Shown: positions 22,073-48,300, counted from the first letter of the stretch. The stretch is 64,000 nucleotides of DNA from Bdellovibrio sp. (GCA_036676395.1 JAKFCY010000002.1:2528001-2592000), one strand, 5' to 3'. Notes: generated by a model from the letters alone, not told the origin. A program made the numbers and translations.

Positions 22073-22114
22073 GATATTTCATTTAGTTTAAGATAGTAGT
22101 CGCTGGAACAGTTC

Positions 22115-28777: not shown

Positions 28778-29626
28778 ATGAGAAATTCTGCTCTTTTTTT
28801 ATTTTTTGCTTTTCTATTCGTGTGTTTGCAACAAGCACAAGCTTATAAAGTTTTAGAAATTCGTAATAATAAAATCTTAGTCGACCTAGAAGGACAGATT
28901 CTAGAACGCGGTGATTATTTAAAAACTCTTCCGAATGCAGAATTTCAAGGCCGCGCTATTGTTATCACTATCCGCCCTGGCCAAGCTATCGGTAAACTTC
29001 AAGATGGTAATTTCACTGTCGGCGAACAAGTCACAAGAATCAAAGCCGATCCAAAGTTTAATGAAGAAGCTATTAAAGTTTCGTTACAATTTAAATATTT
29101 AAACAACGGGATTTCAATCAAACAAAGAGATAACAGCTTTCCAACGCCAAATTCAGAAACCGTCACAATGACCGGTTCTAGTGTTGGTGGCTTTGCGGTT
29201 ATTGACTGGCCCACGGATTGGTTTTTATTGCGCGGTTCATTAGGTGTGGAACCCGTAGAAGTTAAAGGAACAGCAAGATTTAATTCTTGTTTGAGCAAGA
29301 CATCTACAAATTGCACGGTCGACATTAATTATATCGCAGCCTCGGCAGCGATCCGTTATGATTACTACCGCAAAAACCGCCTAGTTACTTGGGTGGCGGC
29401 AGGATCTGGAATTAAATTTCCCTTAAATAAAAGTTCAACATCTTTAAACAAAGGCGCTATCGGTATTGCGAACTCAATTTTAGTAAGTACCGGCGCAGAT
29501 TATTTGATCACTAAAAAATATTTTATTCCGGTCGGAATGGAGTATCACTACTCATTAAATTATTCAGAGAAAGTTCCCGTTATTAGCCAGTTTGCCTTGC
29601 ATGCGGGTATCGGTATGGAATTTTAA
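28778..29626 (+). CDS. exported protein with C-terminal outer-membrane beta-barrel
   Basis: Signal peptide; amphipathic strands; terminal Phe (GIGMEF). Confidence 0.7.
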   Translation: MRNSALFLFFAFLFVCLQQAQAYKVLEIRNNKILVDLEGQILERGDYLKTLPNAEFQGRAIVITIRPGQAIGKLQDGNFTVGEQVTRIKADPKFNEEAIKVSLQFKYLNNGISIKQRDNSFPTPNSETVTMTGSSVGGFAVIDWPTDWFLLRGSLGVEPVEVKGTARFNSCLSKTSTNCTVDINYIAASAAIRYDYYRKNRLVTWVAAGSGIKFPLNKSSTSLNKGAIGIANSILVSTGADYLITKKYFIPVGMEYHYSLNYSEKVPVISQFALHAGIGMEF

Positions 29627-29636
29627 ATTATTACAG

Positions 29637-31679
29637 CTAAGGCGTAAGCGTTACATAGGAATGAACTTTACCATATGAATCGACGAAACGAACTACGCCC
29701 GAATCAATAAAATATATTCTTTCGTTGGCGCCCACAAAAGTATCCCATAGATCCAGTTCGCAGGCTGTTTTTCCGGTTCCATTAGCACAAAGTGATGCGA
29801 AGTTCTGAAATCCGCGCCCTACTTGTGTATCCCAAGAGCTGCCATTGTAACGTCGAACATAACCTTCAAGACGATTCATTGAATAAAGATTGCCTGTGCG
29901 CGAGACGAATAAATTATTATTACTGAAATAACTAGGCACTATAAAATTTAGCGCAGCAGCTGGAACGGCCACACCGTCTTCGCCAAATACAGACATAGTC
30001 TGAAAAGCACACGATGTATCGTCATCACAAAGTCGCGCATAGATATAAGATATATCTTTATTGGTCGTATCGTAAGTTACACCCATACCACCGTAAGGCC
30101 ACAAGGCATCAACAGCCTGGTCTGAATCACCGCTTACACCAGTACCTGATAACTTAATTGAAATGATTTTAATATCACGGTCTGGACGATACACGCGTAA
30201 ACGAAAACGATCAGTTTCATCAGGTAAAACAGAATTATCTAATTCTTTGAGCGGATCTTCTGAGTTAAAAACAATCCAGTTATTCGGTAAAACTTGAAAT
30301 GTGCCATACCATAATAAATTATCATGGTAATCAATTTGTAAGTTAGTGGCTGTCGTAACAGTGCCTGATGTGTCAGATCCACCACCAACGATGGTTTCAA
30401 TCGTTTGCGAACCAGGTGCTTCATTTAAATTAATTCGGCGAATACGATCATAATCAAAGATAATTAAATTTTCTTCGCGATCAAGAGCGATACGCATTGG
30501 CTTTTTAACTGAAGCTATAGCCAATAGCCCGTCAGCTATTGTACCTGTTTGTGGCACGATCACAGTTTGAGTTCCCGTAACTGGATTTACTTTAACAATC
30601 CCACGCACTTTATCGCGGATATAAACGATTCCTGCAGAATCTACCACAAACATTTGTGGATCTAACAACGAAGCATCAGAATCATACGGAGCTGTCGGAC
30701 TATCTGTTTTATTCATTACCGTTACACTGTTAACCACAACATGACTTGATACAGCTCCGCCAGTGATTGTTTTACCTGTGCAGTTTACACCCGCACAAGT
30801 GCGCGTATAGACATCGGTAATATCAGTATTTGTTACACCCACTGGCGAAGATGCTACCAGTGTTAATTCACTTTGATTATGAGCATAGTCACGAGCCCAA
30901 AGAGTTGTGGTCATACTTGCCATCGTCGTAAATCCGTAAAAGAACGGAATACTGACATTAGATAGTGAGGTTTCGCCAGATGAACCAGTTAAACTATTTA
31001 CATTTAACCAGCACGCATCAGTTTCAGTGGGAGCTGTTGTCGTAAAATGTTTAAGACAAACATCTTTGATCGGCGATAGCGAAAAAGTATCTGTGATATT
31101 CGGAAGTGAAATCGTAGAAAATCCAGTTGAAACGTCTCCGTCAATATGACCAAAATTCATTCCCAGCATAATGGGTGCACAAGAATCTACGGTAAACATT
31201 CCCGGTGTTACTTCTAGTGTCGGAAACGCATCCGGACGACCGCGGGTTAATACACGAATTTTATAATTGTTGCCATCGCTGACCTGGCTTGACGCCAAAC
31301 AATCTAATTCGCGTGGCACTGACCAATTAAAAACAGTTTCTTCACCAGAATTGGTCGCAAAATCGTTACCATCTTGGCCTGTTGATGACGTCATTACGGT
31401 CCATGTTAAACCTGCATCACGACTATATTCAATCGTGCTTGAGTTCGAATCTAATGTTGGATCAGTAATAGTTAAATGGACTTGGTATAACACTCCACCT
31501 TTAACATATTCACCACCGCGTAATGATTCAATCACCACAATTGGGGACTGACCATTCATGGGTGGGCTTTCAGAAGCCGGTGTTACCGGATCTTGAATCG
31601 TGCTCTCACAGCCAGAGACTGTTAACATCCCTGCTAATAAAACACTTAAATAAATGAAAAGTTTTTTAGTCTTTAGCAT
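29637..31679 (-). CDS. lipoprotein with Ig-like/Asp-box N-region and NHL/teneurin-like propeller
   Basis: Lipobox VSG|C; SRDAGLTW Asp-box; LIIFDYDRIRRI..TIETIVGGG; paralog of 32957-36463. Confidence 0.75.
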   Translation of the reverse strand: MLKTKKLFIYLSVLLAGMLTVSGCESTIQDPVTPASESPPMNGQSPIVVIESLRGGEYVKGGVLYQVHLTITDPTLDSNSSTIEYSRDAGLTWTVMTSSTGQDGNDFATNSGEETVFNWSVPRELDCLASSQVSDGNNYKIRVLTRGRPDAFPTLEVTPGMFTVDSCAPIMLGMNFGHIDGDVSTGFSTISLPNITDTFSLSPIKDVCLKHFTTTAPTETDACWLNVNSLTGSSGETSLSNVSIPFFYGFTTMASMTTTLWARDYAHNQSELTLVASSPVGVTNTDITDVYTRTCAGVNCTGKTITGGAVSSHVVVNSVTVMNKTDSPTAPYDSDASLLDPQMFVVDSAGIVYIRDKVRGIVKVNPVTGTQTVIVPQTGTIADGLLAIASVKKPMRIALDREENLIIFDYDRIRRINLNEAPGSQTIETIVGGGSDTSGTVTTATNLQIDYHDNLLWYGTFQVLPNNWIVFNSEDPLKELDNSVLPDETDRFRLRVYRPDRDIKIISIKLSGTGVSGDSDQAVDALWPYGGMGVTYDTTNKDISYIYARLCDDDTSCAFQTMSVFGEDGVAVPAAALNFIVPSYFSNNNLFVSRTGNLYSMNRLEGYVRRYNGSSWDTQVGRGFQNFASLCANGTGKTACELDLWDTFVGANERIYFIDSGVVRFVDSYGKVHSYVTLTP

Positions 31680-32960
31680 CTAGAATCCCACCACCAGTTG
31701 TAGTTCTGTATTTTTGAATTCGCGACTAAGACCTGCAGCAGTTTCAGCATTATAAGTTTCTGAATTATAGCCTGCACCGATCCAAAGTGGTTTTTTATTC
31801 ATTGTGAACTGGTAACGATACTCAACACCGATTTCAGTGTGAGATTTAATCACTTCAGACATCATACCAATCATATTCACGCGGGCGATCATACGATTTT
31901 TCGGATCAAATAAATAATCCGCGTAAAGCCCGTAACCCGCTTGGTTTGAAGACAGTTTTGCTGTTGATGATTTTTGCTGAACTGTAATTCCAGAAAAAAG
32001 TGCACGTAAGCCCAGATCAAGCACGTTGTTATAATTATAATGAGCACCAACATGCGCATTGTAATAAAGCATGTCTACAGATTCTTCTTTTTTACCTAAA
32101 GCAAAACTTGTTCTAAATTCGCCGCCGAATTTAAAGAAATTCATGTATTTCGGGCTTAACACAGAATACTTAAACGAATACTTACTGTCTTCACTAACGA
32201 CAGGATCTGCCGTGTAACTTAAATCTAATTTTCCAAGATAAATAGCTTGTTGTAATTCGCTGGAATTTTTTTGGATGGTTTTATCCATCGCTTCTTTTTT
32301 GGCTAAATCGATATTTTTTGGTGTAATTAATTCTAAAACAAATTGTTGATCGCCGTTTCTTAGCGAGATCGTACCAATTGCTCCACCTTTTGGCGATGTG
32401 GCTGGTAAGTTATAACTTCTCCATGGTTCACCTTTACCGGCCACTTCAAATAATGTTGAATCCATCCATTCGACTTGGGCTGGGGCACTTAAAGTAATAT
32501 TTAAAACTTTTTGCGAGTTATCACAAGAAACTGCTAGCGGAAAACTCAACGGTATTTTTGGATCTTGTAATTGCACACGCGCCGAATTTTTTGCACAACG
32601 CTCAACCACAATTCGTGATTTTGCAAGTGGTGTCCACTCGGCCGTGATTTTTTTCTCGACACCTGATTGGGTGGTGTACGTTAAAGTATCAACGCCGCTT
32701 TGAATGTACCAAATTGTTTTATCAGCAACAGGAGCCGTAACCCCGTTTTCGGTAATGAGTTCTGTATCTGTTTTAGCATCAGGAATAACAACACTCACAC
32801 CATATTGGCGAAAGCCTTCTGGGTTAGTGAAAAATCCTTCTTTCGCAGGCCATGCGACAACCTGACCTTTTTCATCGGTCATTTTAACTTGCGCATAAAC
32901 TTGTGATGATAGACTCATCATAGTAAATAGTACTCCTGCAAAAAATCTCTTTATCGTCAT
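31680..32960 (-). CDS. outer-membrane protein: N-terminal periplasmic domain plus C-terminal beta-barrel
   Basis: Signal peptide; aromatic amphipathic strands in the C-terminal ~200 aa; terminal Phe; ATGA overlap with the upstream gene. Confidence 0.7.
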   Translation of the reverse strand: MTIKRFFAGVLFTMMSLSSQVYAQVKMTDEKGQVVAWPAKEGFFTNPEGFRQYGVSVVIPDAKTDTELITENGVTAPVADKTIWYIQSGVDTLTYTTQSGVEKKITAEWTPLAKSRIVVERCAKNSARVQLQDPKIPLSFPLAVSCDNSQKVLNITLSAPAQVEWMDSTLFEVAGKGEPWRSYNLPATSPKGGAIGTISLRNGDQQFVLELITPKNIDLAKKEAMDKTIQKNSSELQQAIYLGKLDLSYTADPVVSEDSKYSFKYSVLSPKYMNFFKFGGEFRTSFALGKKEESVDMLYYNAHVGAHYNYNNVLDLGLRALFSGITVQQKSSTAKLSSNQAGYGLYADYLFDPKNRMIARVNMIGMMSEVIKSHTEIGVEYRYQFTMNKKPLWIGAGYNSETYNAETAAGLSREFKNTELQLVVGF

Positions 32961-35900
32961 GGACATATTCCTGTTGTCGTCACACAGTACTTACCTACAC
33001 CCGACAAACCATTTTGTCTGGTTGGAAAATACACTTGCTGCTTATTATAATCCCAAGAAATTGAATTTCCGTCACATGTAAAAAACTTTTTACCTGTACT
33101 ACTGGTCGGTAGTGGCAAGTTTGTTTCTACTCCGGTAGTTAAATTCTTTTTGTTTAATGTACCATCAGTTGCACAGTAATAGACTTCGTACTGGCTTGAT
33201 GCGTTTTTCTTATATGTAAACGAACGAATTCCTTTTGCCGTTGTGGCAAAAACCGAAGACATCCCCGCACCGATAATCATATCTGAACCGTCACGCGATA
33301 GGGCTGCTTTAATAATTTTTGCGTATCCTGGATTTGCCATCAACACAGCTCGCTCTTCTTTCAAATAAATCGAAGACGTTGTTTGGTGACCCCAGTTAGG
33401 CATATAGATGCTATCACTGATATCTACATTTTCTTCAAAAATTGGATGTCCTTGACAAGTCGGATTGGTAGCTGCACCCATAAATTTACGAACTGTACCA
33501 CTTGTTGATTTAAATATTTTTGCATGTTGATCGACATGACATGCCCCATTCCAACGTTGCGTCCAGGCTATCAAATAAGCCTCACTAGTTCCATTTTCGA
33601 CAGCGTAAGTTCCAATTGTACTTCCGTCCGGAACCATGATCCCGTGAAGAACTAAAGGATAACCATTCATTGAAATGTTTCGGCCTTCGACACCATTAGC
33701 AGCAGCACTTAAAAAAGCGGTTCCGCCAGCACCAAGTACCAGTTTCCATTTACCGGCTTTACCTGTAGCTACGTCTCTTTCATATTTAACAACAATTCCA
33801 TTACGAGTCAGTGACGCATAGAATGTTCCGTCGCGCGGATCAACTTGTACACCTTGAATACCGCCCCAGAATTCGTTGGCAAATGACGATGCGGATGCAG
33901 CATTGGTTGAATAACGATTGACCGACGGAGCTTCAAAAGAAACGCCTTCATCCGTGTAATTACCAGCTAAGCGTGAGATTACGCCAGCATCACCTTGCGT
34001 AATTTCACGCACATTAAATTCTTTATTATCGGCAGCAACAACAGTGTCACTGGCTCCCCAAACACCTAAATAGTTTACACCATTCATTCGCGCAGCTAAT
34101 GGCGAAGCGCCATCACCGGCAGATTTTCTTTCACCAAACAGAGTTTTTAATTTACCATCTGGTAAAATTACGCGGATTTGTCCGGCATCATTAAAATAAA
34201 CTGTATTGGTTGCATCAACAAACGCATCGATACCTGAAATATTACATGAGGCTGCGGTGCCACCATCGGCACAATAACCTTGGGTTTGCCCGCCGACCAC
34301 TGTGTTCCACTGGTTTGTCGCTACATTGTATTTACCTAATTTAAACGGATAATGGGCACCTAACCAATAAACAGCGCCACGACGTGAAGCAAACATTTGC
34401 GTTTCCCAGTAAGCATAATTTGGTGCATGCGTTCCATAACCCACACTCACCCCATTACGCGCATTGAAATTAGCCACGTGATGACCACAACCGCCCGGTA
34501 CAGGAAAACAAATATATGATGTTAAAAACTCTGGTTGCGAAGTTCTGTAATTGAACGACAAGGCAATAGTGCGTACATAATCTGTCGTAAAGATATATTC
34601 TGGGTCGCCGTATTTACCTTTGCCAGATAGTTTCATAAAATAAACTTTATCTTCAGCCGCTTTATAGATACCCATCGTATAATCTACTACTCGCGCCGTC
34701 GGACTGCCCAGCGTAAACCAAATATTTCCGTTCGGTAATACCTGGAATAAGGTGTACATGTTCATTGAAGTTGAAAATTTTAAACTTTTTGCAAGAACGG
34801 CTTTGGTGTATGTCGTAACAGTACCGCCACCAATAATCGTGTTGATCGTACCGTCAGCTTCAACGCGACGAATGCGGTCGCCGTCAAAAATTAACAGACG
34901 ATCTTTGTAATCAACGGTGATTTTTCCGTTACCGATCGTTGTTGCTGAGGTTGCTTGGCCGCCATCGCCAGTTTTAGCGCTGCCTTTGGCTACGAAAACT
35001 TTTTGCACGCCATCGACCGGATCTACTAATAAGACTCCGCGTGTGGCATCCATGAAATAAACTTTACCTTTTGACGTTACCGCTAAAGTACCAAAATCAC
35101 CCGGAACGTCAGCTGCACGAACGACTGATAAGAAAATCGCTTTATTTGCCGAGCCGTTAATACCTAAATCAGTATTACCCGCAACAATTGAAAACTTTTC
35201 TGTATTCAATGCCGGTGTGGCACTTAATGAAACTAAACCCGATTGATCTTTTACTTTGATCTGAATTTTAAAATATTTATCTGTTGGCGCAGGAATACGG
35301 CGACAGCCGGTGAAGTTACCATCAATGGTACATCCCACTGGCGTATTCGTGATATCTTGCATATTCGGAACTTCAATGAAGGTTTCTTCATCTAATGTAT
35401 AATATAAACTAATTGGGGCTGTTAATAAGTCTGAATCTGTGACTTTCCAACGAATAAATAAATCTTGGTTCTGCACAAACGTTGTTTGCTCTTTTGTCGG
35501 AGATAAAGATGATGAATCATTCGTTGAACCGATCATATTTGTAATTGTTGGAGCTACCGCTGGGTTGTACGCGATTGTAACCTGGTCAACATTTTCAGCG
35601 CCTGATCCAGCTGTTAAACCCGAAATGTTTCCGGCAAAATCCATCGCCCAAACACTGATTTTATAAGTGTTTTGCACGAAGCCGACGAAGGTAGAAATAT
35701 CTGTTTTGATTAATGACTTGGCAGCCGTATCTTCTAAATCCTGCCAGCAGGTATCATCTGCATTGGGCGCGATAAGATCAAAAGCTTTTACGCAAACAAA
35801 TTTAATAACCGTGGTTGTATCAGAAGCAGCAATTCGAGTTTCAAAGAAACTGCGATTCACTACTTTAGCTACCGTTGGGTCACTAACACTGCCAACACTG

Positions 35901-36463
35901 ACAACGCCAAGGGCGCCGGCAGTTAAACCGAAAAAATTAATCGTAGGAGCCGTGCCATCAACAGTGAAAGTGCGTGATGACTGGGTCGCGATTGTTTTAT
36001 TAGCGGCATTTGTTGCTGTCGCTCTGATTAAATATCCGATGCCATCTGGTTGAAATGCAGGGGCTACGGCCCAGTCAAATGAACTTTCTGCACCGGCAAC
36101 ACTTGGTAAAGCGCCAGCACCAGTGATCGTTGTCCATGTTGTTCCGCTGTTTGTTGAAAATTCTAATTTTACTGTGTAAAGCCCCGGATCCACTGCACCA
36201 TCGGCTTCAGAAGTTCCTGATACAATTTGATATTTAATTTTATGAGTCATGTCTGATTTGTAATATGGCCAAGTCGTGTCACGGTCACCATCGGTGAACG
36301 TCACCAGATTTAGCCCTGGAACTAAAATTTTTGCCGGATCCCATTCGTCAAAATCAGAGTCTCCCACAGGAGCTTCTGCTGACTGAATCATAGGATCAGT
36401 AATTTCAGCCTGACAGCTGAACAAAGTAGATAATAAAAAGCAGATCAATAAAATCTTTTTCAT
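32957..36463 (-). CDS. large lipoprotein with NHL/teneurin-like repeats
   Basis: MKKILL..LFS|C lipobox; GDGGQAT, GDGASPLAA, RLLIFDGDRIRRV..TINTIIGGG repeats. Confidence 0.78.
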   Translation of the reverse strand: MKKILLICFLLSTLFSCQAEITDPMIQSAEAPVGDSDFDEWDPAKILVPGLNLVTFTDGDRDTTWPYYKSDMTHKIKYQIVSGTSEADGAVDPGLYTVKLEFSTNSGTTWTTITGAGALPSVAGAESSFDWAVAPAFQPDGIGYLIRATATNAANKTIATQSSRTFTVDGTAPTINFFGLTAGALGVVSVGSVSDPTVAKVVNRSFFETRIAASDTTTVIKFVCVKAFDLIAPNADDTCWQDLEDTAAKSLIKTDISTFVGFVQNTYKISVWAMDFAGNISGLTAGSGAENVDQVTIAYNPAVAPTITNMIGSTNDSSSLSPTKEQTTFVQNQDLFIRWKVTDSDLLTAPISLYYTLDEETFIEVPNMQDITNTPVGCTIDGNFTGCRRIPAPTDKYFKIQIKVKDQSGLVSLSATPALNTEKFSIVAGNTDLGINGSANKAIFLSVVRAADVPGDFGTLAVTSKGKVYFMDATRGVLLVDPVDGVQKVFVAKGSAKTGDGGQATSATTIGNGKITVDYKDRLLIFDGDRIRRVEADGTINTIIGGGTVTTYTKAVLAKSLKFSTSMNMYTLFQVLPNGNIWFTLGSPTARVVDYTMGIYKAAEDKVYFMKLSGKGKYGDPEYIFTTDYVRTIALSFNYRTSQPEFLTSYICFPVPGGCGHHVANFNARNGVSVGYGTHAPNYAYWETQMFASRRGAVYWLGAHYPFKLGKYNVATNQWNTVVGGQTQGYCADGGTAASCNISGIDAFVDATNTVYFNDAGQIRVILPDGKLKTLFGERKSAGDGASPLAARMNGVNYLGVWGASDTVVAADNKEFNVREITQGDAGVISRLAGNYTDEGVSFEAPSVNRYSTNAASASSFANEFWGGIQGVQVDPRDGTFYASLTRNGIVVKYERDVATGKAGKWKLVLGAGGTAFLSAAANGVEGRNISMNGYPLVLHGIMVPDGSTIGTYAVENGTSEAYLIAWTQRWNGACHVDQHAKIFKSTSGTVRKFMGAATNPTCQGHPIFEENVDISDSIYMPNWGHQTTSSIYLKEERAVLMANPGYAKIIKAALSRDGSDMIIGAGMSSVFATTAKGIRSFTYKKNASSQYEVYYCATDGTLNKKNLTTGVETNLPLPTSSTGKKFFTCDGNSISWDYNKQQVYFPTRQNGLSGVGKYCVTTTGICP

Positions 36464-36465
36464 AA

Positions 36466-38283
36466 TTACCTTCCTATACACCTAACTGCGTAACTAAAAC
36501 TGCGTTCATCTTTGCTGCGCGTGCCAGTTGTCGGATCAAATAGCCAAGCTTTTAATCTATCTGTCGAATCAACGGTGGCTGTCCACTCTTGACCAGAGGT
36601 ATTTGCATTAAGTGCATCAGGCATTACAAAACGAAGACCATCATGGTTTGCCACCATGTAATCGTAAATCGATGGCAGACGCCATTTAGCTTTCGGAGTA
36701 GTTGTTCTATCAAGACCGGCTTTACCGGCATTATCGATATCTGTATCTGTCGATGAAAAACCTATGGCATCTTCACAGGCACTGATTGGACTGGCTGATT
36801 GAATTTGATAGAATGAATTATCACAAATATCATTTGGATCATCTTCATTGTAGTTTCCGGCCACAATATTTGATTCTACTGAATTTGAACTTCCAGAAGC
36901 TTTACACCAGTTTATTCCTGCTGAAACAACACTGCTCCACATTAAACCTGTTGATTGATCTTGCCAAACTTCGCGGCCTTTACCAGCAGAGACATCTCCG
37001 GTACGAGTCACCAATTTCCATTGGCCTTCGCCGTTGTGGCCCTTTGAGGCTCCATCCCATGTTGCGTTCGCACCGAAAACAGTTGCGCAATCTGCGATTC
37101 TTAATCCGATTGAAGCTTGCGCTGTTCCGCAAGTTGTTGCGGCCCAGCCCGTGCGATCAACTAACGTCACTTGTGTCGTTAAGTTATAAGCATCATCACT
37201 TGAAGCAATTCGTGGAACCGGATGATAATAAGAAGGAAGCACCGTGGCCGAGGCTGCTGAATATGTTGTTGTTTCAGAAACATAAGTTAAAACATTAACC
37301 GTGGTTGAAGTCGTGCGCGACATTCCCGAACCCCACTCTGTTAATACACCCGTGAATGAGCCGGCAACTCCAAAAATAGTTTCACTCACGCGGATATTGC
37401 CCGCGATTAAATTTGCATCGACAACATTTTTATTGGCCGCAAACCAACAACTACCCACATTATTTGAAGTACAAAGGGTATTACGACCACCATATTCAGT
37501 TGTATAAACATATTTTGGCGGCGAAATCACGCATGATCCGCCATTGTAACCATCAGCACAGGCAATCGCACTGCGAACATAGGTATTCGGTTGATTTGTC
37601 CAACAAGGAGCCGCGTTCGGTACGTTTAAGGTACAATTTAATGAACGCCCGCCGTACTCAGAGTTATACCAGTAATTGCTGGCTGCAACCACGCAGGCCG
37701 TACTAATAATACCTTCAGCTGTACAATTAGCGATCGTTACAGAATCAGAAATAATATATCTGCCAGTGATTGGTAACCAACAAGGCGCCGTCAATTCAAC
37801 GTCTTCAACGCAAATATTACTGCGTCCGCCGTACTCTTCATCATAAACGAAATTACCGGTTTCAGCCTTACATGAAGCGCCGATTAAACCTTCGCTATCA
37901 ACAACACCTGGTGCTGTACATAATGGAAAAGATGAACCGGTTTGATCACCGGTCACGCCAAAAATAGTCGTGCCGCTTTGGATATTTGAAGATTGCAGAT
38001 CAGTATCAACTACAGTAGCAGTTCGGCCATCATACCAACCAACCGGCAGAGCACGTGTTAAAGAACCATCTGCAGTCGTTAAATTTGTACCTTCAGTTGT
38101 ACGCCCACCGTATTCAGCGTTATAAACATATTTACTAGCCATTACTACGCAAGGTTCAGTCGTGGTGATAACGCCTTCATCACACTCAGTCAGATCTAAA
38201 AGAGATGATTCATCGATTTCGAATTTCGAACATCCCAACGAGAACATAAACATTGTAAGTAAAAGTAATATATATATTTTCAT
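36466..38283 (-). CDS. Cys-rich YGGR-repeat lipoprotein with C-terminal DUF1566 (Lcl/CLec-like) domain
   Basis: SLG|C lipobox; WQDQSTGLMW, WRLPS, EWTAT, terminal AVRCIGR. Confidence 0.8.
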   Translation of the reverse strand: MKIYILLLLTMFMFSLGCSKFEIDESSLLDLTECDEGVITTTEPCVVMASKYVYNAEYGGRTTEGTNLTTADGSLTRALPVGWYDGRTATVVDTDLQSSNIQSGTTIFGVTGDQTGSSFPLCTAPGVVDSEGLIGASCKAETGNFVYDEEYGGRSNICVEDVELTAPCWLPITGRYIISDSVTIANCTAEGIISTACVVAASNYWYNSEYGGRSLNCTLNVPNAAPCWTNQPNTYVRSAIACADGYNGGSCVISPPKYVYTTEYGGRNTLCTSNNVGSCWFAANKNVVDANLIAGNIRVSETIFGVAGSFTGVLTEWGSGMSRTTSTTVNVLTYVSETTTYSAASATVLPSYYHPVPRIASSDDAYNLTTQVTLVDRTGWAATTCGTAQASIGLRIADCATVFGANATWDGASKGHNGEGQWKLVTRTGDVSAGKGREVWQDQSTGLMWSSVVSAGINWCKASGSSNSVESNIVAGNYNEDDPNDICDNSFYQIQSASPISACEDAIGFSSTDTDIDNAGKAGLDRTTTPKAKWRLPSIYDYMVANHDGLRFVMPDALNANTSGQEWTATVDSTDRLKAWLFDPTTGTRSKDERSFSYAVRCIGR

Positions 38284-38284
38284 A

Positions 38285-40195
38285 TTACCTTCCCACACAT
38301 CTAAAAGCTGAAGTTAAAGTTCGCGCTTTTGTCGAATGCACACCTTGTGCTCCGTTATATATCCATGCGCGTGACCGGATTGAAGAAGATAATGTCGCTG
38401 TCCATTCATCAAGATTTCCGTTAACACCAATATCAGGTAAAACAAAACGTAATCCGTTCGCGTCTGCAACTTCGTAATCATATAATGATGGTAAACGCCA
38501 AGCCACCTGAGGAGCTGTCGGCGAACCCGCAAGATCCATTGCGACCTTGCCTAGAATATCAATTGAAGCATCTGTTGTTGTAAAACCAGCCGCTTCAAAG
38601 CAACCGCTGATCGCTGTTGTCTGATTTTGATAGGTTCCTGAATCGCAAATACTTGAAACATCAGCTTCTTTAATTGATGCCGATACATTTGTTGCGTTAC
38701 TGCTGCCCGAAGCTTTACACCAGTTGGTAGCAGTTCCGATCACTGAACTCCACAATAAACCCGTGCGCTCATCACGCCAAACTTCGCGGCCTTTACTTCC
38801 TGATTTTGCGCCAGAACGGCTGACTAATTGCCAAATTCCTTGTGAAGCATTACCACTTGAAGCCCCGTTCCAGCGGGCATTCGCTCCGAATACAGTACTG
38901 CAATCTGTAATGCGTTCTAAAACTGTATCGTCAGTTGTTCCGCAAGAAGTTGTTCCCCAACCGGTGCGGTCAACAGCCTCTAAATTTAAATTTGAAGTAT
39001 CAAAACCATCATCATCATACGCAATTTTTGGAACCGTACGATAACCTGAAGGTAAATTCGGCAATGAACCATTACCTGCATATTGACCAGCTTCTGCAGC
39101 CGAACCAATTTGCGGAGTATCAATATTACGATGAGCCCCAGAACCCCAGTCACCATTACCAGAGAATGTTCCGGTAATACCGAAGATCGTAATATTATTA
39201 CGAATATTATCTGACTCTAAATTAGGTTCTAAAATTTGTTTTGTACTCGCCGTCACAAAACACGATCCATTAACATCATTGGTACAATTTGCGGCGCGGC
39301 CACCGTATTCGAAATCGTAAACATAACGGCCCGGCTGAGTATCACAGGCACCCGCATTTAATGCATTATCAGTACACGCATTGCTGCCGTCAGCTAATGA
39401 AACGATATAACCTGTTTGATCTAACCAACACGGGTTTGTATTAAGGCCGATTTGACATAATAACGAACGGCCACCAAAAGCTGTCGTGTATCTGTAAGTA
39501 GCCACATTACCACGACAAGCTGCACCTTGTTGCCCTTCGACAGCGCAATCTGCAGATGACCCAGAATCACTTGGTAAACTTGCGGTTACGCGAACACCCG
39601 TTGTATTCACGTAACAAACTTGCGTGTTTGTCGTCGCTTGATTGATGTTCGTACAATTGAATGAACGACCACCGTAAGCTGAAAGATAAAAATAATCGTC
39701 ACGCGCGGCCGAACAATCCACACCCAGTGGGGTGGCATCATTTGTTAAAATACATGCTGCTTCTGCAGTAGTTACCAGAGATCCATTAATGCCAAATACA
39801 TTAACTGCAGCCTTAATCAAAGCCGTATTACCACCAGAAATAACCGGATCAGAAAAAGTAACTAACCCGATGGCTCCATACCAACCAGTTGGTATCGCGA
39901 CATTACCGACACCACTTGGTGCTATAACATTATTTGAAGACGCATCAAAACGACCGCCGTATTGAGCCGGGTACACATAGTGACCCGCAGTGCGGTTAAT
40001 ACAAAGTTCAGTTGTGGCTGTCGCAGAATTTACAACCAGATCGCAATCAAGAGTTGTTTCTGCCTCAGAAAGTTCTTCTTCAGACGGAGCTTGTGAACAC
40101 GAAGTGCCCGCAACCAATAAAAGGCAGGTGGCAGAAATTTTTAACTTCTGCCAAAACGTTAATTTGAATGAAAGAGTGATTCTTTCGTTACTCAA
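38285..40195 (-). CDS. Cys-rich YGGR-repeat lipoprotein with C-terminal DUF1566-like domain (paralog)
   Basis: GTS|C lipobox; WRDERTGLLW, WRLPS, EWTAT, AFRCVGR; TTG start overlapping the upstream stop. Confidence 0.8.
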   Translation of the reverse strand: MSNERITLSFKLTFWQKLKISATCLLLVAGTSCSQAPSEEELSEAETTLDCDLVVNSATATTELCINRTAGHYVYPAQYGGRFDASSNNVIAPSGVGNVAIPTGWYGAIGLVTFSDPVISGGNTALIKAAVNVFGINGSLVTTAEAACILTNDATPLGVDCSAARDDYFYLSAYGGRSFNCTNINQATTNTQVCYVNTTGVRVTASLPSDSGSSADCAVEGQQGAACRGNVATYRYTTAFGGRSLLCQIGLNTNPCWLDQTGYIVSLADGSNACTDNALNAGACDTQPGRYVYDFEYGGRAANCTNDVNGSCFVTASTKQILEPNLESDNIRNNITIFGITGTFSGNGDWGSGAHRNIDTPQIGSAAEAGQYAGNGSLPNLPSGYRTVPKIAYDDDGFDTSNLNLEAVDRTGWGTTSCGTTDDTVLERITDCSTVFGANARWNGASSGNASQGIWQLVSRSGAKSGSKGREVWRDERTGLLWSSVIGTATNWCKASGSSNATNVSASIKEADVSSICDSGTYQNQTTAISGCFEAAGFTTTDASIDILGKVAMDLAGSPTAPQVAWRLPSLYDYEVADANGLRFVLPDIGVNGNLDEWTATLSSSIRSRAWIYNGAQGVHSTKARTLTSAFRCVGR

Positions 40196-41309
40196 GTGTA
40201 ATTTTACCCTTTTCGTCGACTTTAATACGGACTTCTTTTGTTTTGTCTGTTTTTGATAAAGTAATCATCGGAAGCTTTAAGTTTTCAGTCACAGTAATAA
40301 CACTGGCTTGCACTTCTGCCGGAGCATCATTACCGTTTGTATTGTAGAGAGTAACTTTTACTTTGTATTGGCCAGGTTGTAATTTAGGTGTTTTCCACAT
40401 CTCTAAACCCGGGCCATAACGGCTATCAATTTCAAATTGACCGTCAACTCCACCGTAGCTTTTTTTCTTAAAATTGAATTTTTTGTTATTCACATCGATA
40501 ATTTCTAAATCGATGTCGTGTTTTTCAGAAGCCCACGTCGTGCTGATCATTAAAAAGTTATTTGGATTTTGTGTGATTTGATCTTTCGGGATCATATCCT
40601 TCATTTTTTCAACTAGGTCTTTTTGTTTTTGAATTGTTTTTTCTAATTCTTGTTTAATCTTTTGATTTTCAATCGTCACAGTCTGAACTTTTAGCGAAGT
40701 GTCATTCACAGAAGCTAACTGGCGCTTTTGTTCTTCAACTTCTTTAGTTTGCTGAGTCTGAACAGTTAACTGTTCTTGCATACGTTTTTGTAATTCGTCG
40801 ATTTTTTGTTCTAACTGTTTCTTTTCAGTTTCTGTAACCGTTAAATCTTTTTTAACTTCAACGATTTCCTGAGATTTTTGTAAATCTTTGGCTAACTGTT
40901 TGTTTTTTTCTAAAAGTTTTTCAACCATTTGATCCGGAGAAACTTCTTTAAGGTCAGTGGCACTAATCGCTCCGCCAAAAGCTTCTTCAGAGATTTTTTT
41001 CATTTGCTCTTCCATCTGACCTTTCGAGGTCGTAGAAGACATTGTGTATAACAACACGAACAGACCAAATAACAAGGTCATCATATCTGCATAACTTACT
41101 AACCAACCCATCTCAGTACCATGACCACCGCCACCGGCATGAGCATTACCCGCGCCGTGACCGCCGCCAAAGGCAGAATCAAAATGATCGTCTTGACCAT
41201 GATTTTCTACGGCATGTGGCTTGGGATCAAATTCGAAACCCGAAGCAGTGTCTGCTTCGGAAACGTTTTGATCTTCAATGGGTATAGAGTTGTTTTCGTC
41301 TTGATTCAT
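40188..41309 (-). CDS. atypical MotB-like protein (MotB TM/plug + coiled coil + YfaP/DUF2135-like domain, no OmpA domain)
   Basis: WLVSYADMMTLL with the conserved Asp; C-terminal W..HDIDLEIID...DSRYGPGLE...PGQYKVKV. Confidence 0.8.
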   Translation of the reverse strand: MNQDENNSIPIEDQNVSEADTASGFEFDPKPHAVENHGQDDHFDSAFGGGHGAGNAHAGGGGHGTEMGWLVSYADMMTLLFGLFVLLYTMSSTTSKGQMEEQMKKISEEAFGGAISATDLKEVSPDQMVEKLLEKNKQLAKDLQKSQEIVEVKKDLTVTETEKKQLEQKIDELQKRMQEQLTVQTQQTKEVEEQKRQLASVNDTSLKVQTVTIENQKIKQELEKTIQKQKDLVEKMKDMIPKDQITQNPNNFLMISTTWASEKHDIDLEIIDVNNKKFNFKKKSYGGVDGQFEIDSRYGPGLEMWKTPKLQPGQYKVKVTLYNTNGNDAPAEVQASVITVTENLKLPMITLSKTDKTKEVRIKVDEKGKITLE

Positions 41310-41311
41310 AA

Positions 41312-42151
41312 TTATGCTGCTTTATCCGCTTGGCCTTTTTTGCCTTTGTAAGCCGGAATCGCTCCGCCATTTTGTAATTGTTTAAATTTAGATTTAAGCG
41401 CGATACGTTGAGGTGCTGATAAACGAGAAACAACAGTTTCTGTTACAACCTTTTCAGGATGGCCGCGTTTAATTAAGATCACGGCTTCAACGATCATATT
41501 ACGAATATACATTTCATCTTCGGCAGCTTTAGTTGCAGAATCTGATAAAGGTAAAAAGATAAAGTTATTTAAGAAAATTCCCCAAAGAGTCGCGGTTAAG
41601 GCAACGGCCATGGCGCCACCGATAACTTCGATACCACCTTTACCAAGACTGACCATCATCTGAATCATACCAGAAGAAGCTCCTAGTAATCCTAAATGGG
41701 GAGGATACTTAGCGATGTTATTTAAAACTTTTGCATCTTCGAAGTATTTTCTAGAAACCGCATCACGGCGTGCATGTAAAATGTGAGTCACATCGGCCGC
41801 AGAGATATCAGCTTCATTTAAAATTCTAAAAGAATCATTTACAAAGGGGTGATTGCTAGAATTCTGATACCAAGAATTGTTATACCAATTTTTCACAGTC
41901 ACTAAAAGATCTTCAATCATGGCAACGTCTTTTTTAGTTTTCTTAAAAAAGAAACCGTTGTTCACGAAGTTCCAAACTTCTGAGATTTTTTCAAACGAGT
42001 ATGAAAAAAGTGTGATCGCGACTGTTCCGCCCATTACGAGAATAAGAGCATGCGGATTTAACAACATTGTCGGAGCACTTAAACCGTGAATAATACCAAA
42101 GTAAACGACGGTACAACACGCGATAAGGCCTATAAAAACAGATGAATTCAT
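41312..42151 (-). CDS. MotA/TolQ/ExbB family proton-channel subunit (MotA-like)
   Basis: 4-TM layout; LILVMGGT, PHLGLLG..GMIQMM, IGGAMAVALTATLWG..FLPL; GGGGAG RBS before ATG 42151. Confidence 0.85.
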   Translation of the reverse strand: MNSSVFIGLIACCTVVYFGIIHGLSAPTMLLNPHALILVMGGTVAITLFSYSFEKISEVWNFVNNGFFFKKTKKDVAMIEDLLVTVKNWYNNSWYQNSSNHPFVNDSFRILNEADISAADVTHILHARRDAVSRKYFEDAKVLNNIAKYPPHLGLLGASSGMIQMMVSLGKGGIEVIGGAMAVALTATLWGIFLNNFIFLPLSDSATKAAEDEMYIRNMIVEAVILIKRGHPEKVVTETVVSRLSAPQRIALKSKFKQLQNGGAIPAYKGKKGQADKAA

Positions 42152-42169
42152 GAGATTCTCCCCTATGTA

Positions 42170-42177
42170 CATATCGG
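42170..42177 (-). promoter_or_regulatory. sigma28-like -10 element upstream of the motAB-like operon
   Basis: CCGATATG on the minus strand, 6 nt before the RBS; -35 element weak. Confidence 0.45.
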
Positions 42178-42320
42178 TTTTTTCTCAATTTAATAAACCG
42201 ACCAAAGTTGGTTATATTGTCGACAATAGGTTTTTTGTTCGCAAAAAGCGGAGTCTCGAAACAGGACGTTGGTACTAGGTTAAATTTTATTTAATAGTAA
42301 TTGTGTTTGATCTGGACCTT

Positions 42321-45300
42321 TTACTGGCAAATCGGAGCCGCAGGGTCTTTACTGCAAAGATAGGCTTTAATCGCCGCATTTTCTTGTTCTAGGCTTTGAA
42401 TTTTACGATCTTTAACAGCGTTCTCTACTTTAAGATTTTTTATTTCAACTTCGACACCGATCAACTTATGATAAATTTCTTTGATGGCATTTACTGCCGT
42501 CCAAATAATCGAGTCATTAGTGACATGAAAAAAACCTTCAGAATCCTGCGTCACCGCTTCAGGAATAACCTTCAACACATCCTGAGCTTTGATACCCACA
42601 AACTCTTTGCTGGATGGAAGACCAAGAGGATTATCTTGTTTGTAATTAAAATAAACTGTGTTCAAACCATTTAAAGCAGCGATACCACGAGTAAATGGAG
42701 CGCGAATATTTTTAAGACGTTCATCGGAAGCAATTGTCCAAGTGCTTGTTCCAGGTTTTGCCGCAGAATCTGTCGACAATTGTAACTGGTAAGTTGGCGC
42801 AGATACACCGATACCAACATTATTTCCATGAACCACCATTGCCGGAGTCGATACGCCACCACCGTTTGGCGCAAAAGAAATTCTATCCGGCGAAGATTCG
42901 GTATAAAAAATACCAAAATTAGGATCGGCTGTGCTAAAGCGCCAGATAGCGCGTGTGCCGCCGTATAGACCTCCGTAGATATCACCATTAACTTGTACGT
43001 TGCCGCTAACGTGCAATTTTTGTAATGGGGTGCTGGTGCCAATACCAACATCACCATCGTTTTCAAAAGTCATCACTTGGCCTGCACCATAATAAAAATC
43101 TAAAAATGCATCAGCTCCCAGATCACGCGCGTCGATTTTCCATGGACCACCTGTGTGACCATAAGGGTGAATAACCATACGAGTTATGGAGCCGGAAGTT
43201 CCGGCTGCAGCTTCTTGTTTACCAATACCAACATACCCCGAACTGTCGACTCGCATTCTCTCGATAGCACCGGTTGAAAATCTAATTCCACCCGCACTTG
43301 CCGATATATTAATACCGCTGACAATACCGCTATTAGAAAAAAGCGCTAACTGATTTAGCGCTGTCGTACTCGACACGCCACCAAGTAATATGCCCGCAGA
43401 ATTCGAGCCATAAGCTGAGCCGATGTTTGTCATGACAAAACCAGCTCGGGATAAAGTGCCCGAATTATTATTTGTCACATTCACAAAAGTATCTGCATTT
43501 GAATTTTGTTCGATTGATAAAATTGAAGTTGGATTTGATGTGCCGATACCGACATTACCCGTATTTGTAATGCGCATTCTTTCTGGCACGTTACCTGGAG
43601 CTACTGTCGTTTGATTGGTGCCGAATGAAATACCACCCTCATTACCGCTGCCATTAAACTGCAAGTAACCCATCCACGTAGCATCGATTTTTTGCTGAAT
43701 GCGAGACCCCGCAGAAAACCAATTTGTACCCGAAGCTGTTCTAATCTGACGAATATCTAAAAGACCGACATTTCCATTATAAGAATTAAATCTTTGCAGC
43801 TCAACGGTGTCATTTATATTCTGACCTAAATCGCTGCCTTTAACCTCAAATTTTGCAGTTGGCGCAGATGTTCCGATGCCGACATTGCCAGTGCTTGTTA
43901 TACGAAGGCCTTCTGTCAAGGCCGGCGAAAGGGCTTGTCTATACATAAGAGAAAGATATCCCGCCACATCAGATGTTGTGGCATTTTCTTTAGAGCCGCG
44001 AACCGCGCCAAACACCACTGGTGCTGTTCCGGAAGATATGTACCCTCCGAAACCTAGGCCACCACCGACACCAGTCGCGGCACCGGCATTATCTACAACA
44101 AATGAGTTTACCGGATAACTTGCACTATAAAGCGGACCAAGAACATCCAGTCGTGTTACCGGAGCGCTTGTTCCAATTCCAACGTTGCCCCCGTGAGGTT
44201 GTAAAACAAGTTCTGAATCACTGGCGAAAGTTGCAAATGCTGGATCTCGATGACCCGATTGAATCCACGAAGTGCGAGTGTTTGAAAGCTCACTTACACC
44301 GAAATATAAAGCATTACTTCCAGCACCGAAATCCGCTGCCACACGAAAGCCAGATTTATTTATAAAGTTATTTGCATCTGAATTTGTCGCATTCGGAGTT
44401 GACCCAGGATAGTTTACATCTAAACGTGAAATTGCAGCGGTCGTTGCAATACCCAAATTTCCATTGGTATCAACGCGCATTCTTTCGGTGTTACTTGTAC
44501 CGAATAAAATCGGCTGACCTTGAATTGTACCGATAGAAAAACCACCGGCCACATCACTTATAATTGTATTACCATCAGCAAATAATCCATTGCCTGAAGC
44601 TTCTTGCACACGCAGAACTGCGTTATTTAAATCATATGAACCAAAACCCGTTCCTAAAGTTGTACTTTCAAAAACATGTAATTGCGCTGTTGGAATCTGC
44701 CCGATACCTAAGGCACCACTTGCTGTCATACGCATGCGTTCGCCATTGTTTGAATAAAACGATAGCTGTCCGTTCGTAGGACCTGCTGTGCCTGTTGAAA
44801 ATAATCCTGTATCGCCATCTGCACCGAACGCGTAACCCACTGTCGAGTTATCTCCGTTATCCGGAATTCCTTGATTAGCTCTAAAACCAGTACCTTTAAT
44901 AATCGCAGAACCACTGATGATACCACCGACATTCAATGCACCAGCAATACCTGCGCCGCCATTTACAATTAAAGCACCTGTTGAAGAATTTGTTGAAGTC
45001 ACAGTTGATGATACAACAACTGAATTTCCTGCTGCCGGCCACAACGTGATTCCAGAAGTTGATGACACTGTATTTGTGTTTGTTAATACTCCGCCAGTGG
45101 TTGCTGTTGCAATCGTGCGGCGAATGCCAGAATTATCAGTCACGTAATAGTCAGTGCCATCATATTCGATCGTTCCTGACTGCGGCGAAGTTAATAAAGT
45201 ACCTAGCGCTAATCTAATCGGTGCGACTGATGAAGTTCCCGGAGTGATGTGAAGTCTTGCTGTTGGCGCTGTTGCCCCACCGATGTAAACACGGCCTGTC

Positions 45301-48300
45301 GATGTCACTTGAAATACTCCGGTCGCGCCAAGATCAAGGCCTGGTCCTATACCCCAACCAGTAGTGCCATTAATCTGACCGGCGAAAACACTGCCTAGAG
45401 TATTTTTATACTCGATCAAACTATTCTGATTATTCGCGCGTTCAAGCGTAAGAATATTTGCTACGTTATCGACAATATGCAAACGCGTCGCCGGTGCTGA
45501 AGTTCCTATACCGACGTTACCGGCTTTAACAGTAAAGTAATCAAAAACACCCGTAGAGTTCTGCACGCGAAACTCATTTGTGGCGGGTCGAAGCAGCAAT
45601 ACCCCAGAGCCATTATTTGAAAAACTACCCGCGCCTGAGATCGTTAGATTTTCATCGGCTCGAATAGTTCCGCTCACATGCAGCGTTGAAGTAGGGCTGC
45701 TTGTACCAATACCCATGCGGCCTTGGCCATTTAACACCATACCAATGCTATCAACTACGCCGGTGTTTGAAGCTGAATAACGAATTGCGAAAGCATCATC
45801 AGACTGATTATTTCTAAGATCGACCACAAATGATCCATTCGATGGCCCTTGAATATAAGCACCATTTGAAGTTGAAAATCCTGGGTTTAAACTTCCGTAA
45901 ATCATGTTACCCATTTCAATATTAGCGGCTGAACTCACTGATGTGGCCAAACGAAACGTACCAATAACATCAAGGGCAACTGTGGGAGCTGTGGTACCGA
46001 TACCCACATTACCCGCTTCGGTAACGGCCATAAGTGTTGTTGCACTTGCACGGTCACTGCCGTTAGTCATGACTCTGAATTGACGAATTGTATCGTTGTT
46101 ATCAGTATCGATGGCGACATCCACACTGCCAACACTTGAAAGGCGCATACCACCACTGCCATCACCTAAGTTACCCGCAAAATTAATTTGGCCAGTGTTG
46201 CCACCGCTGATCGAGCCGCCAACATTAATATCACCGGCAATACCGGCACCACCTTTGACAATTAAAGCTCCTGTGCTAGTGCTTGTCGAAGGTGTTGTGC
46301 TTGAAACAATGACTGAACCCACAGGAACCATCGAAATGTTTCCTGTCGAATTAATTATTGAAGCATTATCAATTGAGCCAGAACTTGAACCCGTTGCAAT
46401 CGCGCGGCGATTATTTGATGCGTCTGTTAAATAAAAATTTGCCCCATCGTATTCCATCGCTCCAGTTTGCGCAGACGCGGTTAATGTTGAGGCTGTAAAT
46501 CTTAAAGCCGCAGTGACTGATGTTCCTGATGTTAAATGTAATTTCGCTGTAGGAACTGCAATGCCAATACCGACGTTGCCTGCACTGGTTATTCGCATTT
46601 TTTCGGTGGCGCTTGTCCCGAAAATTAAATTACTAGATATGTTGGTAGTTAATACTGAATCTCCTACTGCCGTACCTGGCAGAAAATGGCCAGCAGCCAG
46701 CGCCGCACCGAAGGTCGAATTTAAATTAGATCCGCTATACAATCGAAATGCTGGTGCATTCGTTCCCGTCCCCTGAATCTTCACTCCATTACCCGGTGAA
46801 GTTGAGACTATATGTAAATTAGAGTCTGGGGCACTCGTTCCAATTCCAATGTTGCCACTAGGAGCCACAGTTAAAGCACGCACCGGGGTCATGTTAGTTC
46901 CCCAATTTGCTGTGATCAGACTCATTCCGGTATCGTTTGACTCAAGACCAAACGACGGCGCGAACGCCGATGTCAACGTCGGCGTTCCGACAACTGAACC
47001 TGAACCTAAAGTACCACTTAATAATATATATTGATCATTGGTCGAAAAATTACCAATACTTTGAATATTGATCGAACGGTTCTGCAAAGTCGAATAACCA
47101 AAACTTGCTAAAGTATTGACCGCATCATTTACCACTGAATAACCAACATGTAATTTTGAATTCGGCGAAGTTGTGCCGATGCCGACATTGCCATTGTTGT
47201 AGTAAATTGTGCTTGCGCTGCTGACCCATTGCGAACTTGTAATCGCTGCAAAACTTGCTGCTGTAGTTACAGATAAACTTGATACCGTCGAAGAAAGCGT
47301 TGTTACACTGACAACATTTGCCGGTGTGTAACCCAGTGTTGCAACAACAGCCGCGCTTGTTGCTGATTGTTTATTTGAAAAATTTAAATAGTCATTATAA
47401 GAAATTAATCCTGCAGTTGTTGTTGCGGCAGAAGCCATCGGAAAATTAAAAGTGTGAACAGTTCCAGTTGAAGAAACATTTGGCGCGACGCCAGAAACTC
47501 CCAGGGCAAAAGTTTGTGATCCAGAGACTAAGCCATTAATTGATAAAATACCTGCACCAGAAACTCCGAACGTTACCCAGGTTGTTCCGTTACAGTATTC
47601 GACAACGCCAGAATTATATCTTAAAGTTCCTGCAAAAGTTGCAGAACAAGAATTTGCTTCAGTGCCTATTTTAATTCCGCCAGCAACATCTAATGTCGTC
47701 ACCGGAAAACTTGTACCGATACCGACAGATCCAGAAGCAGTAATACGCATTCTTTCGTAAGAACCTGTTCCAAATACTAAGTGATTATTTTTATAAGTAC
47801 CAATCGCTAAGTCACGAGCTGATGCTCCAGAACTACCATTAGTTAAAATCATCGAAGTCGTGCTGCGCGGTAAACCAAAAATAGTTCCTGTGTTTGAAAC
47901 TCCAGGTTGCGAAAAAGCAATATAATTTGTTTGCGTATCGAAAATCGTAAAACGGGCATCCGCAGTTGCACTGGTGCTGTGATTTTTTACTTCTATGCCA
48001 GAAATAGCATTCACATCACTAGCCACCAATAAAGCAGGGGTAAATTCTGGCGCGCCATAATTGCCAATTTCGACGGGACCGGTTTGATATGAAATTGCAG
48101 TGCCGCTTGCAATCCATTGTGAACTGGTGATCGTGGCAAAACTTGCAGTTACTGAGTTTTGTAAACTTGTGACCGTACTTGAAACCGAAAACACTGTTGA
48201 TGAAACTGAACTTAATGTCGAAGTCACATCGGCGCCATCTGCCGGAGTATAGCCCAAGGCTGCAATCACCGAACTCGAAGTCACACTGACATCGGGATTA

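Follow-up and report, generated by a model that had tools for sequence, protein, structure and literature searches.

What does an ion motor of the flagellar type drive when its genes lie in one operon with four lipoproteins and an outer-membrane (OM) barrel protein? This question arises from a locus in a 64,000-nt stretch of DNA from Bdellovibrio sp. (GCA_036676395.1), hereafter the window (G000:C2:2528001-2592000, where G000 is the window's own genome, of 3.4 Mb). The organism is a Pseudobdellovibrio/Bdellovibrio relative; its nearest named relatives are Bdellovibrio sp. qaytius, whose MotB-like protein is 81% identical to that of the window, and Pseudobdellovibrio isolates. Seven tightly packed open reading frames (ORFs), all on the minus strand, span positions 29637-42172 and encode a MotA-like protein, a MotB-like protein, lipoproteins 3 and 4, a large NHL-repeat lipoprotein, the barrel protein and a small NHL-type lipoprotein. 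The motor pair is a stator-derived channel that has lost its wall anchor and its rotor-contact charges and is co-inherited with an OM protein having large periplasmic domains. On balance, we think that the locus probably encodes a non-flagellar envelope machine specific to the Bdellovibrionota, in which this ion motor is coupled to an OM complex and acts on OM lipoproteins.

The MotA-like ion-channel subunit (41312..42151, 279 residues) matches Pfam MotA_ExbB (E 4.2e-14) and aligns over its full length with solved flagellar MotA/PomA structures (9lu9, 1.1e-17, residues 10-245; 6ysl, residues 10-269). In NCBIfam it is matched only by flagellar stator models, full-length, with a best score of 103.5 bits against a cut-off of 340. 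The prolines of transmembrane (TM) helices 3 and 4 are kept (YPPHLG and FLPL), and across the family P157 is nearly invariant and P208 invariant. The segment that would face the rotor is altered. Flagellar MotA carries in its cytoplasmic loop an Arg...Glu pair, which we take to contact the FliG rotor (R90/E98 in Escherichia coli). The window's protein has KNWYNNSWYQ opposite ARREGVLALE of Paenibacillus MotA1, so that N/W and Q face the Arg and Glu, and no charged pair is common to the 18 aligned MotA-like family members at this segment. The canonical MotA1 of the same genome has the pair (FRKEGPQGVE).

The MotB-like subunit (40188..41309) has a Pfam MotB_plug match (E 3.6e-14), and its resemblance to solved MotB is limited to residues 66-186. 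The predicted structure comprises a TM helix (residues 68-94) that holds Asp75, a plug helix (99-111), a stalk of ~115 residues formed by helices 125-201 and 208-239, and a C-terminal beta-sandwich (253-372; domain boundaries ~250-373) with a predicted local distance difference test score (pLDDT) above 90. Pfam finds no OmpA domain on the protein; the five OmpA matches in the genome all lie elsewhere. Among 24 MotB-like sequences D75 is invariant, as are H264, D265, D267, D295, R297, G299-P300-G301, E303 and W305 in the C-terminal domain. With no OmpA domain, no rotor-contact charges and scores far below every NCBIfam stator cut-off (43.6 bits against 283 at best for the MotB-like protein), the pair is not an ordinary flagellar stator, as an initial annotation made from the sequence alone had proposed.

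The fold of the C-terminal domain is closest to the TerD family. Foldseek gave 2qz7 as the best match (E 1.5e-4), and TerD structures head the VIA list (Z 10.1-8.2, root mean square deviation (rmsd) ~4, 122-126 residues aligned; best 3ibz with Z 10.1, rmsd 4.1, 126 aligned), ~2-4 Z above generic Ig-like folds. The TerD model PF02342 itself matches nothing anywhere in the genome. The domain had been labeled DUF2135, and this label survives at best as a remote relationship suggested by profile comparison: PF09906 does not match the MotB-like protein or the locus, but hhalign aligns the domain profile (probability 95.7, E 1e-8) with one repeat of the caspase-domain protein P0215, and a different repeat of P0215 comes close to the PF09906 threshold (20.5 versus 22 bits). 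The domain family has 159 members at E 1e-30 or better in a set of 1.84 billion cluster representatives, and in nearly all of these it sits C-terminally in a protein of 270-470 residues. Profile matches in three giant Big_3 repeat proteins, P0157, P0169 and P0201, are uninformative, as their scores are summed from many weak Ig-like stretches.

The genome contains seven MotA/ExbB-family genes and three MotB_plug genes. One motor pair is canonical, with a MotA1 scoring 336.7 bits against an NCBIfam cut-off of 303.8; the two others are the window's pair and a paralogue at C2:1.79 Mb. The partner of the canonical MotA1 is a 317-residue MotB (G000:C2:418934-419887; L059:6935-7888, plus strand) in which a plug and a TM segment similar to that of E. 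coli are present but Pfam detects no OmpA domain. According to a preprint (bioRxiv 10.1101/2025.02.19.638989), epibiotic predators lack motAB1 and mostly motAB2 and keep motAB3, a pattern that the single canonical pair here fits.

The barrel protein (31680..32966, 428 residues) begins with a type-I-like signal peptide (VYA/QV) and has at most a faint Pfam match (OMP_b-brl, 0.005). Its assignment as an OM barrel, already made by the initial annotation, is borne out by the predicted structure (pLDDT 81.9), which has two periplasmic beta-sandwiches (26-112 and 119-215), a helix (217-236) and ten clear strands over residues 239-427. The barrel domain matches the OmpT-like 7xw0 (Z 19.9) and OpcA 2vdf (Z 19.5), and Foldseek agrees, giving ten strands by two methods. 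In the predicted model this likeness to OmpT and OpcA concerns fold class only and does not imply protease or adhesin function. The barrel domain filled both fold-search lists for the protein. In the ESM Atlas all the clusters returned were unnamed, and the PEGA and autotransporter leads among them were weak (below 0.9). In 21 members of the barrel family, C124, C148 and G177-K178-G179 of the second N-terminal domain are invariant, and a C-terminal Phe is nearly so.

We took ~20 kb around genes for the MotB C-terminal domain, called and clustered ORFs, and obtained 51 distinct loci besides the window, several of which are near-identical relatives, so that the counts are not independent. A MotA-type gene lies immediately upstream of the MotB gene in 50 of the 51 (46 MotA-like and 4 divergent MotA/ExbB); one locus begins at a contig end. 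A barrel-family gene lies near motB in 42/51 loci: 38 belong to cluster F2, three to the divergent branch F14, and one was found by hidden Markov model only. In six of the nine barrel-less loci the sequence stops short at the end of a contig or of the locus (L054, L073, L083, L085, L088 and L095). The divergent MotA/ExbB loci are L045, L046 (4555-5816, plus strand), L053 and L058, with Pfam confirmation in one; in L045, L046 and L058 the MotA/ExbB gene is preceded by a gene for an FHA-domain protein of ~143 residues, which hints at control by phosphorylation.

Across genomes the motor and the barrel travel together. Of 401 Bdellovibrionota genomes in a single sample, 25 gave a MotB match that reaches the C-terminal domain, and the 21 with a strong barrel match all fall within those 25. 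The remaining 376 have no full-length barrel match, and weak barrel-only matches (E 2e-6 to 4e-13) occur in six. Copy numbers of MotB and barrel track each other (2 and 2 in the window's genome, in G156 and in G301; 3 and 4 in G346), and the two are co-conserved over several Bdellovibrionota families. The distribution is patchy: the family occurs in 5 of the 14 genomes of the window's genus, and all 26 sampled genomes of the B. bacteriovorus-like genus g3 yield plug-region matches only. In a named collection, in a scan that rests on two peptide patterns, full-length matches were confined to Bdellovibrionota-labeled records and one labeled "bacterium"; records of other phyla matched in the TM/plug part only.

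The lipoprotein genes are less constant. The window's lipoprotein set recurs in only 12/51 loci. Since this set is not universal and a subtilase set takes its place in another 15-17 loci, the conserved unit is MotA, MotB and the barrel, and the lipoprotein cassettes are exchangeable. The type I cassette, found here, consists of two Lcl_C-like proteins (family F6) and two NHL proteins (family F5), each family being present in 12 loci, among them the second motor locus of the window's genome (L055). The type II cassette combines an S8 subtilase of ~1140 residues (F4, 15 loci; two members were scanned and matched Peptidase_S8 at 3e-31 and 1e-34) with two Cys-rich lipoproteins (F3, 17 loci). Nearly all accessory proteins are lipoprotein-like at the N-terminus. 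Ten of the 15 cassette subtilases have an unusual lipobox-like (F/H)-Q-N-C after a hydrophobic stretch (L035, L046, L051, L077, L081, L083, L085, L088, L095 and L096), as do two F13 proteins.

All four lipoproteins of the window, read from their translations, have a hydrophobic N-terminus ending in Cys. Lipoprotein 3 (38285..40195, 636 residues, lipobox-like LVAGTSC) and lipoprotein 4 (36466..38298, 610 residues, probable start ATG 38283, lipobox FSLGC) are paralogues, 42% identical. They had been described as YGGR/DUF1566-like, and the repeated motifs and mutual similarity are real: lipoprotein 3 carries repeated Y-x-Y-x-x-(E/A)-(Y/F)-GGR motifs. The domain assignment is weaker, as the C-terminus of lipoprotein 4 matches Lcl_C, which we take to be the former DUF1566, below the cut-off (2.5e-6, 28.2 versus 34.9 bits), and lipoprotein 3 matches no Pfam family. 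The large NHL-repeat lipoprotein (32957..36481, 1174 residues, probable start ATG 36463, lipobox TLFSC) bears out its NHL label, with a TEN_NHL match above cut-off (8.1e-10) and a weak one-blade match to teneurin NHL structures. The small one (29637..31679, 680 residues, lipobox TVSGC) reaches TEN_NHL only below cut-off (0.006), and its assignment holds through homology to the large protein (4e-31 in relatives). The genome has four F6 members only, all at its two motor loci, and two further copies of F5 beyond those loci.

The second of these loci, L055, contains motA, motB, the barrel gene and two genes each of F6 and F5, but their order and strands are not those of the window, with the four lipoprotein genes convergent to motA-motB-barrel rather than in between. 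Three genes directly upstream of its motA on the same strand (L055:14122-19302, minus; G000:C2:1791621-1796801) encode proteins of 572, 564 and 598 residues that match no Pfam family. Between its motB and barrel genes lies a gene for a 223-residue protein with a LysM-like YIVKPGDTLSGI motif, recognized by eye, and a C-terminal TM segment.

How might such a machine work? The MotA-like and MotB-like proteins would form an inner-membrane channel of the 5:2 type, with the Asp, the plug and the TM3/TM4 prolines. The peptidoglycan anchor of MotB has been swapped for a helical stalk and a TerD/DUF2135-like sandwich bearing the invariant acidic and Gly-Pro-Gly cluster. By analogy with Ton, Tol and GldLM, the stalk would reach the periplasmic domains of the barrel, and ion flow would be converted into mechanical work at the OM on the lipoprotein cassette, made up here of two NHL-propeller and two Lcl_C-like adhesin-type proteins and elsewhere of an S8 subtilase and two Cys-rich lipoproteins. 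The likeliest work would be to expose, release, activate or move lipoproteins at the predator's surface; surface display, activation or movement is suggested because the cassette proteins are adhesin-like and include a protease. We infer the MotB-barrel contact, the orientation of the lipoproteins and the kind of work, and likewise their surface exposure and a function in export, display or motility. The parts of this model differ in strength. A non-flagellar motor coupled to the barrel is likely. That the lipoproteins are the objects of its work, by display or export, is plausible, at somewhat short of even chances. The boldest form is tentative and rather doubtful: a new class of ion-gradient-powered OM machine that arose from a flagellar stator, is found only in predatory Bdellovibrionota and delivers large lipoprotein adhesins and proteases to the surface or switches them on there. 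Such a machine would amount to a new system of secretion or display, and exchange of cassettes would adjust the surface that the predator offers to prey.

Several observations weigh against this model. Three well-covered loci (L040, L047 and L052) have no barrel gene nearby and are genuine misses; the genome of L040 does carry one, on another contig. Four of the 25 MotB genomes (G093, G116, G209 and G289) have no barrel match. The stalk, measured from the channel motif to the C-terminal domain, varies from 140 to 283 residues. Its length and that of the periplasmic part of the barrel give a Spearman coefficient of -0.37 (p ~0.05) over 29 loci that include non-independent relatives and the truncated L086 barrel; 12 of the 51 loci had been dropped for want of a motif match, and the rest of those left out had no F2 barrel. 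With a variable stalk and such weak compensation by the barrel, a simple contact of the fixed-ruler kind is unsupported. Predictions of a complex between the barrel N-terminal domains (24-238) and the MotB C-terminal domain (245-373) scored 0.32, 0.13 and 0.03 in separate runs and do not bear on binding either way. Folded proteins of 600-1200 residues would not fit through a barrel of ten strands, and export through the barrel itself is therefore unlikely. Instead of being cargo, the lipoproteins could face the periplasm as structural parts, and three F6 members of paralogous loci have a signal peptide without the Cys. The MotA-like protein has kept a cytoplasmic domain of flagellar size with no obvious partner, and the genes flhA-flhF-flhG-fliA lie immediately upstream of the operon in this lineage.

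One alternative is a Tol-Pal-like system for envelope tethering or maintenance, in which the motor pulls on the OM barrel, so holding or remodeling the OM, and the lipoproteins are periplasm-facing partners like TolB and Pal. We consider this alternative unlikely. The architecture of motor, stalk and OM protein agrees with it, as does the narrow barrel. The NHL/beta-propeller proteins are reminiscent of the TolB propeller, and TolB-like OM proteins of Bdellovibrionales are mentioned in PMC12204202. Presence in 25/401 genomes, and in 5/14 within the genus, often in more than one copy, would be odd for a housekeeping function, however, and the cassettes are exchangeable, one of them with a subtilase. 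Furthermore, Pfam detects no Pal/OmpA-type peptidoglycan binder in the window's operon.

A surface-motility or adhesion-trafficking engine that moves adhesin lipoproteins along or within the OM, like Agl-Glt with CglB or GldLM with SprB, has a small chance of being the correct explanation. The accessory proteins are adhesin-like (NHL, Ig-like and Lcl_C), and known gliding engines pair 5:2 motors with OM barrels and lipoprotein adhesins (PMC9946355 and PMC3169522). The alternative cassette is a protease set, though, not one of adhesins; the plug-region matches are all that the B. bacteriovorus-like genus g3 offers, although B. bacteriovorus glides; and Pfam assigns no Glt- or Gld-type family to any of the seven proteins.

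Could the pair still be an accessory flagellar stator, anchored through an OM scaffold instead of peptidoglycan? By sequence it is nearest to flagellar MotA/PomA/MotP and MotB/MotD, its genes come right after fliA in this lineage, and a CCGATA(A/T) element stands upstream. We nevertheless hold this to be quite improbable. The Arg/Glu rotor-contact pair is missing and its replacement unconserved, no stator model comes near its cut-off, flagellar genes do not adjoin the paralogous locus or most of the others, there are up to three copies per genome, and a subtilase is among the partners. The upstream element has TAAA 11 nt from CCGATA(A/T), a spacing that is not canonical for sigma-28; in the sigma-28 control, the canonical TAAAGTTT-N11-GTCGATAA was found upstream of one of eight flagellin genes. 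Lastly, a Zorya-type anti-phage or conflict system with the motor as envelope sensor, which a patchy, multi-copy MotAB-like pair with unusual appendages might bring to mind, can be dismissed almost entirely, since a PADLOC search at E 0.01 gave no match for any of the seven proteins, nuclease and ATPase effector genes are missing, the MotA-like protein has no long cytoplasmic tail and the partners are envelope proteins.

If the preferred reading of a stator-derived motor coupled to an OM complex is correct, how does it compare with characterized systems? Ion-driven 5:2 motors make up a short list (flagella, Ton, Tol, gliding/type IX secretion and Zorya). Flagellar MotAB/PomAB are closest by sequence and share the TM Asp, the plug and the adjacency of the two genes (2-nt gap), but here a stalk and a TerD-like domain replace the OmpA-like anchor, and the partners are a barrel and lipoproteins. 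In GldLM/PorLM, a long periplasmic extension of the B subunit runs to OM lipoprotein and barrel partners, and the cargo comprises proteases and adhesins. The long extension and the OM partners are common to both systems; the differences are that no family matches, that the barrel has ten strands and is no SprA-like giant, that lipoproteins take the place of proteins with a C-terminal sorting domain, and that the phylum is another. Slam-type translocators of surface lipoproteins have a periplasmic tetratricopeptide-repeat domain and a DUF560 barrel; Pfam finds neither family here, and the periplasmic part is all-beta and the barrel 10-stranded.

With ExbBD-TonB and TolQR-TolA-Pal the locus would share, if our reading holds, the chain in which an inner-membrane 5:2 motor energizes an OM barrel or lipoprotein by way of an element that spans the periplasm (PMC12204202). 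It differs in that the B subunit itself bears the stalk and in having a flagellar-type A subunit instead of one like ExbB/TolQ; the seven proteins match no ExbD/TolR, TonB or TolA family, and the only related match is the generic PF01618 on the MotA-like protein. Agl-Glt with CglB, a Myxococcus system with homologues in Bdellovibrio, likewise belongs to a predator once classed with the deltaproteobacteria and unites a motor with OM barrels and a lipoprotein adhesin (PMC9946355 and PMC3169522), but AglRQS is TolQR-like (PMC12505986) and the component families differ. The TPH-vWA proteins and SiiAB resemble the window's motor in having a dimeric subunit with a force-transmitting domain that does not bind peptidoglycan (PMC12204202); those subunits carry vWA domains and pair with TolQ-like pentamers, whereas this is a flagellar-type pair in which a coiled stalk and a TerD-like domain accompany the plug.

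A recent survey divides MotAB homologues into flagellar stators (its "FIT" group), with plug and OmpA-like anchor, and "generic" transporters, with neither (PMC12505986). Judged by its sequences, the window's motor family fits neither group as defined there. It breaks the division, being flagellar by sequence and by its plug, with wall anchor and rotor charges gone, and would be a flagellar stator re-used for another job. The family has acquired a stalk, a different end domain, a dedicated OM barrel and lipoprotein cassettes. A partner set unlike that of known systems had been claimed, and we found nothing to contradict it: PADLOC matched none of the seven proteins, and no description of the system was found in the literature, supplementary tables not covered. 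A term search of the main text of PMC11656739 returned no mention of MotA, MotB or stators.

The system offers a testable route to two open questions: by what means predators equip their surface when they lack the familiar pathways for surface lipoproteins, and how the OM is supplied with energy. Cultured carriers exist (Bdellovibrio sp. qaytius and Pseudobdellovibrio sp. HCB154), which makes genetics feasible.

The organization of the operon is that of the initial annotation, with all seven ORFs in place and, from ATG starts, neighboring genes that either lie 0-2 nt apart or overlap by 4-8 nt. The motA-like and motB-like genes are separated by 2 nt, and motB-like overlaps the lipoprotein 3 gene by 8 nt. 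Lipoprotein 4 follows lipoprotein 3 after a 1-nt gap from its ATG (14-nt overlap from GTG), and the large NHL gene follows lipoprotein 4 after 2 nt from its ATG (16-nt overlap from GTG). The large NHL and barrel genes overlap by 4 nt from ATG (10 nt from the first ATG), and the small NHL gene abuts the barrel gene with a 0-nt gap. The motA-like ORF reaches 42172, but its true start is almost certainly the ATG at 42151 (MNSSVF...), the position annotated at the outset, because the ATG at 42172 is unconserved in relatives and a GGGGAG ribosome-binding site stands ahead of 42151.

Upstream of the motA-like gene, a block of ~55 nt (42172..42225, minus strand) is near-invariant in four relatives and its flanks diverge. 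This candidate promoter/operator holds a palindrome, TGTCGACA, and an imperfect repeat, AACCAAC...GGTCGGTT, in addition to CCGATA(A/T). In Bdellovibrio sp. qaytius the motA-like gene comes directly after fliA, with a hairpin and T-run between them. Because of the conserved block and this hairpin, the operon appears to have its own control region. Contigs of a soil metatranscriptome (run X1, share 0.08) that are 88-99% alike cover 27 of the 30 bins of 29400-42400; a close relative's locus is present in this RNA library. One contig bridges the large-NHL/barrel junction, with the caveat that an RNA library may hold DNA and that a contig is not a single transcript.

On the same strand upstream of the operon lie a gene for a trimer fibre and then fliA, flhG, flhF, flhA, flhB, fliR, fliP, fliO and fliM. 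The fibre gene (42321-48914, minus strand) encodes a mosaic adhesive trimer fibre of 2197 residues, with NF053851 Bdello_MAT_N (1.6e-46) and a Peptidase_S74 chaperone domain. It stands between fliA and the motA-like gene here and in three close relatives, and is missing at that place in Bdellovibrio sp. qaytius.

Downstream, a secreted protein of 282 residues (28778..29626, plus strand; family F7, no Pfam family) is a possible eighth component. Its gene is convergent to the operon here, accompanies the type I cassette in five other loci, and in L067 and L100 is co-directional and just after the small NHL gene. Farther away, at 20960-24495 on the plus strand, genes for a hybrid response-regulator/histidine kinase, a secretin and a T2SSE-type ATPase follow one another in a row, an arrangement suggestive of a secretion or pilus module of the Tad/type II-like kind.

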